DNA of 64,000 nt from assembly GCA_963754655.1 (NCBI GenBank), contig CAVWGN010000001.1, positions 2,848,001 through 2,912,000 of the forward strand. The letters are read 5' to 3'. This document shows, piece after piece, positions 5,487-60,130 of the stretch. Origin of the DNA: an uncultured Chlamydiae bacterium. Lineage in GTDB: Bacteria > Chlamydiota > Chlamydiia > Chlamydiales > Parachlamydiaceae. The notes beneath the pieces are model-generated. The model was not told the origin of the DNA. It saw only the letters and a list, made by a program, of their open reading frames with translations, and did not search any database. How positions within the stretch are numbered: position 1 is the stretch's first letter; the number at the start of each line of letters is the position of its first letter. A program made the translations under genes and the position numbers.

Positions 5487-5772
5487 AAATATACTCCTAT
5501 TTAAGTTGTGATTTAATTTATAATTATTTAAAAAATTTAACAATAAAGCAAATATTTTATTTTATAAATAATATTAAATTTTAATAAATAATTAATTATA
5601 AAAACAAAATTGAATAAAATTATTAATAATTATATGTTTAAAAAAATAATTTAAATTTCTTATATATATTATTATAAAACAAAATTTATTTATTATATAG
5701 TCATAACACCGCAATAATTATAATTATTTTTTAATGTTAGCTAAAAATAGAAACAGTTGTATTTGAGAAAGG

Positions 5773-6070
5773 AGCATGGTTCAATTGAAGGGAACATGTT
5801 TATGCCGTCCTTTCAGGACTCGATGTCTTTTTGATAGAACCCAGGCCTCCGCTTCGCTGCAACCTGAGCTGTAACATGACGGCCCTTCAAGAGATGTTTA
5901 AGTCCCTCTTCTATAGTCCCTAAATCATCTTTTTGTTAAGGCCTAAAGGGCCGGCCTATTACAGCCCAAGTCGCAGCGAAGCGGAGGCCTGAGTTCTATC
6001 AAAAAGACATCGAGTCCTGAAAGGACGGCATAAACATGTTACCCAAAATTCAATTTTTTTAAACCATGCC
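5773..6070. mobile_element. Palindromic MITE/REPIN-like element (module D) with target-site duplication
   Basis: Ends (a)GCATGGTT...AACCATGCC; long imperfect inverted arms; direct repeat GAGAAAGG(A) at 5765-5772 and 6071-6078; same module at 15476-15773. Confidence 0.85.
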
Positions 6071-6262
6071 GAGAAAGGAAATAAAATTCTTCCAAATAAG
6101 GAAACTGGACATAAAATTTGTTCTAAATAGATAAAAAGTTCAAATTAGGGAATCAGAAGCAATCAAGCTTTTAAAAATAGATTTTAATCCTTCACCTTAC
6201 GCAAACGAGGTTAAAGAATCAGTGATATCCCTTAAGGTTTTTTTTCCATCGTGAGTCGAAGT

Positions 6263-58027: not shown

Positions 58028-59929
58028 TTATTTAACTTGAATCATTTTTTTCACTTCCCGTGGCGTCATTCTGACGCCTTTGGCAGTGACGCCTTTGATC
58101 GCTACACTTTCAAGCTTAAATTGCACTTTGGCAATCGTTTGCCTAGCCTTTGGAACAAGTTGCAACTCCAGGGTGTTATGAGGGGCAGTGGAAATATAAT
58201 CAAGCACCATCCCCTCCTCTACATAGCGATAGGGTTTATCCAAAATGAACTTTTCCACGATAAAACGCTTGGCATAAGCATAATGTGTTTTAGGATCGCG
58301 GTAAGCAACACTAATGATAGCTTTTTTATCTGCCACTCCCAAGTAGACGACTTTATTGCCTTGATGATGCATATATTGCTTTTCTGGAATATTGATCACA
58401 TGATAAGAGCCATCCTTAAACATGACGAGCAGCTTATCAAAGTTAGTACATTCCAACAGATGCTTGCTTTCCACCTTTGTTCCAATAAAACCTGAAGCTG
58501 GATCAAATCCTACGGTTACTTGCCTTGTCTCCATTGCGCGAGTGTCGACTTGCTGGATAGCTTGAATTTCTGTTCGCCTTTCATAGTCTTTGACATATTT
58601 TTTAAGTAAGCCTTGTAAGTAGCGGATAGTGACCCTTTTAATATTTTTAAGCTCTTTTTCCACTTTTGCCAACTGCTCTTGACAGGAAACAATTTCTTCT
58701 TGGCTTTTTGCTAAGTCAAAGCGTGAAATGCGGCGGATAGGAATATTGAGCAAGCGTTCGCGATCTTCCTGTGTAGGCTCACGCAAAAGTTGCATGTGAT
58801 AAGGTTTTAAGCTTGTGGCAATGGTTTGATGAATCTGTTCATACGATTCGATATTTTCAATATGCTTATATAAGCGATTTTCAATGAAAATTTGTTCAAG
58901 AGATTTTTCAAAAATTTTTTCCTTCAAGCGTGCCTGCTCAATTTCCAATTCGCGACGCAAGTATTCTTGCAGTTTATCGGCATGATATCTCAAGATTTCT
59001 TCGACATCTGCTTCCCAAGGCAAGTTATCTTTAATGACGACGATTTGCGAGTGAAGCGACACTTCGCATTCCGTATAGGCATACAAGGCATCGAGCAAAT
59101 CTTGCGCATAATGTCCTCGAGGCATCTTAATCTCAATTTCGACATTTTCTGCTGTATAGTCTTGAATAGCCTCAATTTTAATTTTGCCTTTTTTCGCCGC
59201 TTCATCAATAGAGCGAATCAAAGATTCAGTTGTCGTCCCATAGCAAATTTCTTTAATCACTAGTGTTTTGGGATCACGGACCTCAATCTTGGCTCGCAAC
59301 TTAACTTTTCCTCGACCTTTATCATACTGAGAGGCATCCATAATGCCGCCAGTTGGAAAGTCAGGTAAAATGTTAAAGGATTTTCCCTCTAAAATAGCAA
59401 TCTCAGCTTCGAGTAGCTCGGCAAAATTGTGCGGAAAAATATGAGTAGACATTCCCACAGCAATCCCATCTGCCCCTTGCAAAAGCACAACAGGAATCTT
59501 AGCGGGCAAGTAAACAGGTTCTTGATGGCGTCCATCATACGAAGAGCTGAGACTGGTAATATCTGCGTTGAAAAGCGTCTCTTTGGCCAAAGGACTTAAA
59601 CGGGTTTCGATGTAACGAGACGCTGCGGCTGGGTCTCCAGTAAACAAATTACCAAAGTTTCCTTGTTTATCAAGCAAGTAACCCTTATTTGCCATATTAA
59701 CGAGGGCTTCTGTAATGGGAGCATCACCATGTGGATGAAGAGCCATCGTTTGACCCGCCACATTAGCTACTTTATGCAATTTGCCATCATGCATGATCCA
59801 AAGCATATAGAGAATGCGGCGTTGAACAGGTTTGAGACCATCTACGACATTAGGAATGGCACGATCCAAAATGACATAAGAGGCATACTTGATATAATGA
59901 TGCTGCATGAGCTGCTTAATATCTTCCAT
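58028..59929 (-). CDS. parC: DNA topoisomerase IV subunit A (chlamydial type)
   Basis: DRAIP..DGLKPVQRR, HPHGD, AASRYIETRL. Confidence 0.93.
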   Translation of the reverse strand: MEDIKQLMQHHYIKYASYVILDRAIPNVVDGLKPVQRRILYMLWIMHDGKLHKVANVAGQTMALHPHGDAPITEALVNMANKGYLLDKQGNFGNLFTGDPAAASRYIETRLSPLAKETLFNADITSLSSSYDGRHQEPVYLPAKIPVVLLQGADGIAVGMSTHIFPHNFAELLEAEIAILEGKSFNILPDFPTGGIMDASQYDKGRGKVKLRAKIEVRDPKTLVIKEICYGTTTESLIRSIDEAAKKGKIKIEAIQDYTAENVEIEIKMPRGHYAQDLLDALYAYTECEVSLHSQIVVIKDNLPWEADVEEILRYHADKLQEYLRRELEIEQARLKEKIFEKSLEQIFIENRLYKHIENIESYEQIHQTIATSLKPYHMQLLREPTQEDRERLLNIPIRRISRFDLAKSQEEIVSCQEQLAKVEKELKNIKRVTIRYLQGLLKKYVKDYERRTEIQAIQQVDTRAMETRQVTVGFDPASGFIGTKVESKHLLECTNFDKLLVMFKDGSYHVINIPEKQYMHHQGNKVVYLGVADKKAIISVAYRDPKTHYAYAKRFIVEKFILDKPYRYVEEGMVLDYISTAPHNTLELQLVPKARQTIAKVQFKLESVAIKGVTAKGVRMTPREVKKMIQVK

Positions 59930-59967
59930 AGCACTTCCTAAAAATGACGGCTAATGATTAATTTATT

Positions 59968-60130
59968 CTAGTACTCCACCACACTAGTTTTGTGTATTTA
60001 GATTGCTTCAAAGCCCCGCGGTTGAATTGGCGTAAGTGGTCAATATTAGCAATATGGACCCACTTACGCCAATTCAACCGCGGGCTTTGAAGCAGTCCCA
60101 ATAGGCAAAACTCATGTAATGGAATACTAG
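59968..60130. repeat. Minimal nested element (shell plus module G) between parE and parC
   Basis: CTAG at both ends (59968, 60127); inner hairpin GTTGAATTGGCGTAAGTGG...CCACTTACGCCAATTCAAC at 60021-60078. Confidence 0.9.

Follow-up and report, generated by a model that had tools for sequence, protein, structure and literature searches.

Nested palindromic loci of a Parachlamydiaceae genome are probably gene-less DDE-type mini-transposons carrying hairpin arms that match Y1 transposase gene flanks

The 64-kb window analysed here (the whole stretch of DNA from 2848001 to 2912000 on the chromosomal contig C1 of G000, a 3.16-Mb assembly of an uncultured member of the Parachlamydiaceae) carries a series of palindromic loci. 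An earlier note on this sequence had described them as combinations of an outer shell, here termed A, with modules B to G, and every locus that it cited was found in the window. The shell itself was confirmed at 15308, 26569, 46865 and 59968, with its right half only at 17544-17601. At 59968-60130, A is bounded by CTAG on both sides and encloses G (60021-60078); shell and G are both present as described, though G is the native centre of A and not cargo, as explained below. The locus at 26569-27051 is a shell around F, or A(F)A, as had been proposed, and the stop codon of an open reading frame at 25601-26572 lies within its left CTAG. At 46865-47468, the order is A(B(F)B)A, as claimed, with a truncated right shell end. 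F and its outer ends occupy 46991-47360 in this locus and are flanked by an 11-bp direct repeat (one mismatch) of the B hairpin.

The most elaborate locus of the window is found at 15308-16092, where a shell A with an intact left CTAG and a truncated right end surrounds B, C(D) and E. The order proposed for this locus, including a partial G at its right end, was upheld. The B arms span 15361-16041, and their start matches the last codons and 3' flank of two Y1 transposase genes (L003 and L005, see below). Inside them, a C shell (15428-15821) with ends of the type found in the IS-c family surrounds a D dimer (15477-15774) that has an Acido-Lenti-1-like hairpin in each arm; inverted CCC-N-GGG sites of 9 bp flank the C shell. 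The 144-bp MITE E (15831-15975) also lies at a CCC-N-GGG site. On the plus strand at 16086-16129, half of G is fused to the truncated right shell end, a junction that was likely formed by deletion via a short shared sequence. The region 15308-16090 folds into a branched cruciform of -394.6 kcal/mol (z -42 against 20 shuffles). On its left, the shell is abutted by IS-a, a minus-strand IS5-family element with two ORFs (14469-15308), and the CTAG is common to both.

There are three further cited loci. D stands alone at 5773-6070, as had been reported, in the form of an inside-out dimer whose hairpin arms are of the Y1-flank type; it has MITE-type ends of its own and lies between the two copies of an 8-bp direct repeat (5765-5772 and 6071-6078). 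Next to it is a plus-strand fragment of M (6195-6235), an outer end seen on B-type arms. The half shell at 17544-17601 is joined to a left-end remnant of IS-c (17433-17543, minus strand, 87% identity), which is also joined to a P arm, a further type of hairpin arm (17360-17438, minus strand). The locus at 40492 had been read as a shell around F. A degenerate left shell and most of F are indeed present (40494-40830), but an intact IS256-family element encoding 400 aa (40831-42154, minus strand) has inserted into the F arm with an 8-bp duplication and splits the locus; F resumes at 42155-42229 and the right shell is absent. This IS256 element, the IS5 element at the 15308 shell and the IS-c end at 17433-17543 had all been absent from the earlier note. 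The modules had also been credited with distinct termini throughout, but the outer end of D contains the terminus quoted for G. At cut-off, Rfam recognised one tRNA and nothing else in the window, and further miRNA matches correspond to generic long hairpins.

A genome-wide BLASTN search with the modules of the window identified 375 loci amounting to 109 kb, which are distributed evenly along the chromosome and occur on a small contig as well. When the library was extended with arms found de novo (K, H, M, N and P), the total rose to 409 loci and 148.7 kb, equivalent to 4.8% of the C1 chromosome and 24.7% of its intergenic non-IS DNA. All 265 loci of at least 100 bp are intergenic, which is partly so by construction, and 65 of these 265 lie between convergent gene pairs, compared to 346 of 2128 among all adjacent gene pairs. 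The orders seen were A(G)A, A(C(D)C)A, A(G C(D)C)A, A(B(C(D)C)B)A, A(B(F)B), free C(D)C, free D and E-K-E, and nesting reached up to four layers. C(D) is hosted by B, A, P and F, with neither flank labelled in only 3 of 81 C pairs (labels of nested hosts are rough and miss short arms). A lies in unique DNA in 54 of 83 pairs. Moreover, nesting is reciprocal: A sits within F at C1:606530, 2002142 and 2840226, and F sits within A elsewhere. Excision of A at those three sites in silico restores the F arm with one CTAG. This genome-wide nesting table bears out the proposal of several unrelated, non-autonomous and modular elements that combine in many orders, and the modules show no single fixed arrangement. 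No orthologous empty sites were seen, and contigs from four sequencing runs carried the same modules at high depth with no empty site bridged.

Paired G lies inside paired A in 23 of 25 cases. In the congener G001, the inner A arms and G form one free family with other outer arms, and the same core is present in G016. These observations indicate that G is the native centre of A, and we rejected the idea that it is inserted cargo. Where C or B occupy target sites beside G, the centre was presumably lost.

The hairpin arms resemble the surroundings of Y1 transposase genes. PF01797 matched nine times in the genome, representing one IS200/IS605-type gene, one fragment of the same, one truncated gene and six intact genes. 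By inspection, all six intact genes encode WQ, five encode Y---Q--HH and one Y---Q--YH; HuH motifs are DHVH, DHIH, NHVH or DHLH. Judged by these motifs, the six genes fit the subclass 1.2 signature (PMC6006769). The Y1 protein lacks the Y---NP signature of class 2 TnpA-REP, scores 22.6 bits with NF047646 (cut-off 80), and in NCBIfam lies over the IS200 cut-off and under the RAYT cut-off. The earlier note had advised a search for RAYT or Y1 transposases; Y1 transposases tied to the arms do exist, though they are class 1 enzymes and not RAYT-like.

Flanks of the Y1 genes match between 30 and 340 genomic places each: L004 leads to D (340 places), L003 and L005 to B (74 and 103), L006 to K (77) and L002 to H (30). 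Arms D, B, K and H are thereby matched to the flanks of putative subclass-1.2 genes. F is less clearly placed, and its weaker link to L007 consists of adjacency and a short F-like remnant downstream of the gene, followed by an F dimer. Inverted repeats surround L002 (199 bp, 89%), L004 (101 bp, 77%) and L003/L005 (23-28 bp); none were found around L006 and L007, both of which are without a 5' arm. Y1 genes between long inverted repeats also occur in G015, G016 and G001, the first two of which have D-like arms. Traces of the genes persist within the repeats: ten internal-deletion copies retain about 119 bp of the deleted Y1 gene, including its last codons, between D arms, and 24 of 99 B arms retain a gene 3' remnant. 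Arms are about 100-140 bp long with several hairpins each. They are frequently arranged as dimers, with 101 inside-out D dimers (gene-proximal ends outward) versus 8 outside-in, 33 F dimers and 33 K dimers. D dimers without the wrappers of G000 were found in G015, G016, G017 and G027 (7 of 30 relatives had any match) and in four of five further genomes (G143, G089, G134 and G209).

The central hairpin of the D arm scores as the Acido-Lenti-1 motif of Rfam (RF01687). Among 37 scored matches in G000, 11 reach the cut-off of 37 bits, and the D copies of the window score 35.2 bits, just under it. Matches to RF01687 were obtained in 11 of 151 genomes and 0 of 14 controls, and one match in G153 is directly 3' of a subclass-1.2-type Y1 gene. 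In the accessible text of PMC2864571, this motif is catalogued among probable RNAs, from Acidobacteria and Lentisphaerae; in G000, by contrast, a D hairpin that reaches the family cut-off has the behaviour of a DNA repeat located beside Y1 genes.

Most arms also carry shared outer ends (230 of 259 for D, 67 of 76 for F and 70 of 71 for K), and only 5 of the 259 D arms in G000 have unique flanks. Outside recognised C pairs there are 17 D copies, seven of them within C- or N-type shells. Direct repeats of 7-9 bp flank 8 of the other 10, including the copy at 5773 (shuffled control 0.006), and 6-bp repeats were found at three of six copies of a gene-remnant version of free D. E is flanked by non-palindromic 9-bp duplications in an F arm at three sites, both alone and as an E-K-E composite, and exact outer duplications surround 7 of 26 adjacent E pairs. 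Free D and E have what defines a MITE, namely terminal inverted repeats, no genes and a direct target duplication. C-type ends can carry other cargo as well, as in a MITE of G009 (L105) with an exact 9-bp duplication. Exact C-end scans of genome contigs gave no locus at first and then three, all gene-less and from one Parachlamydiaceae assembly. Given that 230 of 259 D arms are on wrapper ends, DDE enzymes acting in trans likely explain the present copies, and do so better than the Y1 transposases.

Candidate sources of these ends differ in how closely they match. We presume A to be an IS630-type MITE, and the IS630 of G000 has only the first few bases in common with it; no IS630 was found in the G001, G015 and G016 drafts. 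Because CTAG is palindromic, the CTAG flank of A is ambiguous between a duplication and a terminal repeat. No autonomous element with strict A, C, E, F or G ends or with free-D ends was found in G000, and PF13546 (IS701-type) gave no match in this genome. E did not rise above chance level in 400 chlamydial genomes.

The C ends match those of an uncatalogued IS family, IS-c, with a predicted Hermes/IS256-type fold. G000 has 10 full copies of IS-c, nine with 9-bp duplications. Homologues of the 439-aa protein are encoded in 15 of 299 other chlamydial genomes, and their alignment has invariant D68, D142, D166 and H169 and near-invariant E337 and E340 (DDE, DxxH). A predicted model (pLDDT 80) shows an RNase H fold with a helical insert, for which Hermes is the best fold match (Z 15.5, rmsd 4.8 over 318) and the P element the next; comparison with ISCth4 gave Z 10.1 and rmsd 6.2 over 252. 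In the Atlas, the protein scores 0.98 to unnamed clusters and 0.80 to Mutator/ISL3 clusters. As modelled, IS-c is similar to the prokaryotic Mutator-like transposases portrayed in the accessible text of PMC3942029 in its RNase H fold, DxxH after the second Asp, helical insert and 9-bp duplications, but differs in having no Pfam or NCBIfam match and Hermes as its best fold. The ends of three homologues (L073, L076 and L077, in G098, G143 and G209) begin like C, and 9-bp duplications surround most of the homologues for which both ends were resolved. No IS-c relatives were confirmed in metagenome contigs. The IS-c ends of G000 itself differ from C and are closer to B. About ten bases at the end of B correspond to the end of IS-c in G000, and the B end likewise corresponds to the last codons of the Y1 gene; one guess is that it once served as a cryptic IS-c end.

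Several kinds of insertion sequence are in the modules far more often than intergenic length predicts. Counting full copies only, by whole-element BLAST, we found both flanks in modules for IS-b (10/10), IS256 (8/8), IS-g (5/6), IS-e (2/3), IS-i (2/2) and IS-c (6/10, and two more with one flank), where the expected share is 0.247, or about 25%; same-site copies (five of IS-g, ten of IS-b) may be multiplied passengers, so that P values overstate the effect. All five IS-f copies are in D, with one flank counted. IS-a has both flanks in modules in 3 of 23 full copies and one flank in 12 others, many of them at the CTAG of A, and IS607 is in modules in only 1 of 14 cases, with several of the other 13 in ORFs. 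Nesting is thus non-random, and at least four IS families occur in modules much more frequently than the share of intergenic DNA taken up by modules would predict.

The earlier note had placed insertions at hairpin centres, but the sites are instead short motifs that lie in arms as well as centres: a 9-bp CCC-N-GGG type, an 11-bp GGG-N5-CCC type, CTAG and a D hairpin loop. IS-b, IS-c, IS-g, IS-i, C and E all use fixed motifs. The eight IS256 insertions, in D, F and K, each have a different target and no sequence common to all, which leaves room for a structure-guided choice. Using the CCC-N-GGG consensus derived from IS-c and C flanks, we located 478 cores on C1, of which 371 are in modules, 76 in coding DNA and 22 in other intergenic DNA. 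Part of the 371 module cores are the duplications themselves, which is the feedback proposed below.

Flanks of the nested modules are often inverted. The 81 C pairs have exact direct flanks in 3 cases, direct flanks within one mismatch in 16 and exact inverted flanks in 20. No direct flanks surround B (0/29) or G (0/25), and the 12 F cases include three that are direct within one mismatch, one being a 102-bp look-alike, versus five inverted. With direct repeats so rare or absent, a DDE origin of C, B, G and F would depend on conversion between arms. Rare variants common to both arms number 31 in C(D)C (1.6 expected), 52 in A(F)A (4.3 expected) and 1 in E (2.3 expected), although shared descent among copies can inflate such counts. 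Arm perfection is only marginally higher in copies whose flanks are inverted (0.005 vs 0.007). It is plausible from these sequence comparisons that conversion between arms caused the inverted flanks.

Together, these results make it probable that the stacks are gene-less DDE-type mini-transposons that carry mirrored Y1-flank arms and that nest, in all likelihood, because the arms hold preferred GC-rich motifs. The modules would then not be the equal peers of the earlier note, but two layers consisting of Y1-flank hairpins and DDE-type ends. The arms may originally have served Y1 enzymes as recognition ends and have dispersed at first in the form of bare dimers, a state seen in relatives. Transposases would then have landed beside or in a dimer, with their ends turning into a mobile wrapper that is mobilised in trans. 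Every insertion would duplicate its target and bring new targets, creating positive feedback, and native centres, G among them, could be lost by deletions between neighbouring targets. Sequence copying from one arm to the other would likely turn direct duplications into inverted ones and keep the palindromes perfect. Host function is not needed to explain the modules. More tentatively, it is possible that a distinct REPIN-like subclass-1.2 system exists across environmental chlamydiae whose hairpins include Acido-Lenti-1, and that at least six DDE families of certain lineages, one of them the uncatalogued family with the Hermes/IS256 fold, use the hairpins as landing pad and cargo, partly by structure, to give a self-feeding nest that fills a quarter of the intergenic DNA.

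We considered whether subclass-1.2 Y1 enzymes could still move the hairpin dimers in REPIN fashion and build the nests, with the outer ends as hitch-hikers. REPIN-into-REPIN clusters are described for Pseudomonas in the accessible text of PMC3116915, and G000 has six intact Y1 genes with cognate arms. In addition, bare D dimers in G015, G016, G017, G143, G134 and G027 have variable flanks and no clear duplication, except for an 11-bp repeat around a larger palindrome at one of nine D-type loci. Nevertheless, we regard this account as unlikely, given the scarcity of unique flanks at G000 D arms, the 7-9-bp direct repeats at free D copies and a protein that passes the IS200 but not the RAYT cut-off. 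Y1 enzymes are not known to produce direct target repeats. A different question is whether DNA structure, such as extruded cruciforms or stalled forks, guides targeting instead of or beside motifs. This seems doubtful: IS-b, IS-c, IS-g, IS-i, C and E use fixed motifs, the modules are ignored by IS607, and many insertions are in arms, away from the symmetry axis. The best case for structure is IS256, found in modules at all eight of its sites with eight different targets; the arms are near-perfect palindromes. IS256 insertion is characterised as likely random in the accessible text of PMC3942029.

The elements could also have piled up in dispensable DNA as safe havens, insertions elsewhere having been purged. 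The behaviour of IS607, outside modules at 13 of 14 sites and several times in ORFs, speaks against this, as do the A pairs in unique DNA and the recurrence of insertion sites at the same nucleotide. We therefore find such havens quite improbable, even though all loci of at least 100 bp are intergenic (again, partly by construction) and promoters and terminators in non-module intergenic DNA make 0.247 a low null. Descent from one large ancestral element by internal deletions is barely credible. It would suit the near-constant location of D within C and of G within A, but C(D) has at least four hosts, duplication lengths are distinct, and D, A+G and C ends occur separately in different relatives. 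A single element with deletions is ruled out by the reciprocal A-in-F and F-in-A insertions.

Many parts of the DDE-type mini-transposon model have precedents, here compared with what is openly accessible of each source. TIRtrons with their TIRYT enzymes and TIR dimers (PMC3733652) likewise have Y1 genes in long inverted repeats, dispersed repeats that are often dimers, and several gene/repeat pairs per genome; the capture by DDE ends and the nesting proposed here are not described in that accessible text. The Y1 proteins share with TnpA-Y1 subclass 1.2 a length of about 150 aa, DH[IV]H, WQ, Y---Q--HH, a C-terminal tail and low copy number. Table 1 of the source (PMC6006769) lists no REP for this subclass and places it mainly in Cyanobacteria and Bacteroidetes, unlike the abundant cognate hairpin families found here. 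REP/REPIN-RAYT systems (PMC3116915, PMC5581495) also have inverted doublets, flavours each beside its own Y1 gene, and clusters formed by insertion into units, but here the enzyme is class 1 and not class 2, the arms are about 100-140 bp, and there are transposon ends and target duplications. IS elements that insert specifically into palindromic REPs are known (PMC1525189); in the single genome of G000, at least six IS types and their gene-less ends show this behaviour, and the target is itself carried within the mobile unit. Finally, MITEs and TIME composites (PMC3184786, PMC4133298) have terminal repeats and duplications, are gene-less, and can move intervening DNA between two mini-elements, as in E-K-E. 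Here, however, the cargo is the hairpins of another mobile system, nested to a depth of up to four layers. The openly available literature, searched for chlamydial taxa and nesting, yielded no chlamydial description of such nests. The parts are known from TIRtrons, REP-targeting IS and MITEs, and their combination is a rich variant.

These loci provide candidate cognate DNA substrates for a Y1 subclass that has been described as repeat-less, and they suggest a DNA role for the orphan RNA motif Acido-Lenti-1. They also point to a target-selective DDE transposase that is uncatalogued and whose ends and target are known. REP-like repeats can, it appears, be taken over by DDE ends, which would blur the division between REPINs and MITEs. 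Hundreds of natural copies are available in which sequence copying between palindrome arms may be measured.

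The insertion sequence IS-c, of an uncatalogued family with a Hermes/IS256 fold, lies at G000:C1:69957-71802 on the chromosome contig and is present in multiple copies (L057, L071). A poly-A stretch marks the overlap between its 102-aa coiled-coil ORF and the frame of the 439-aa transposase, likely the site of a -1 frameshift. Neither Pfam nor NCBIfam assigns IS-c to a family. An IS-c homologue in another chlamydial genome (G209, L077) has inserted into a short GC-rich tandem repeat array, with a 9-bp duplication. Three near-identical subclass-1.2 (small Y1 transposase) genes, L003, L005 and L008, were found in a tandem duplication region at G000:C1:2539000-2548300, and one of the three is truncated.

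Flanking CTAG provides the stop codon of the adjacent gene in 7 of the 82 pairs of outer shell A on the chromosome contig. Within the window (58028-61963), shell A with its native centre G separates the genes for the gyrase/topoisomerase IV B and A subunits, the B gene being represented by two ORFs (60174-61406 and 61370-61963). The A+G cores of a related genome (G001: L039, L042, L045-L049) are surrounded by outer inverted arms of ~35-45 bp, which differ between copies and are complementary to each other inside each copy.

Large ORFs at 42759-45983 and 1797-5543 of the window contain internal repeats of 270 bp and ~291-324 bp. The start of the chromosome contig (G000:C1:1-10002) recurs at the end of the small contig (C2:25940-35310), and this ~9.4-kb repeat may be an assembly overlap.

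The 144-bp MITE E and hairpin arm K form E-K-E units in a tandem array at G000:C1:413108-416498. In G143 (L103, L111), D hairpin dimers are arranged outside-in with a 15-20 bp spacer, an orientation opposite to that in G000. A D dimer in G016 (L011:1385-1869) is enclosed by another hairpin dimer and adjoined by an A+G-like element; its position inside a hairpin dimer indicates that nesting also occurs beyond G000.
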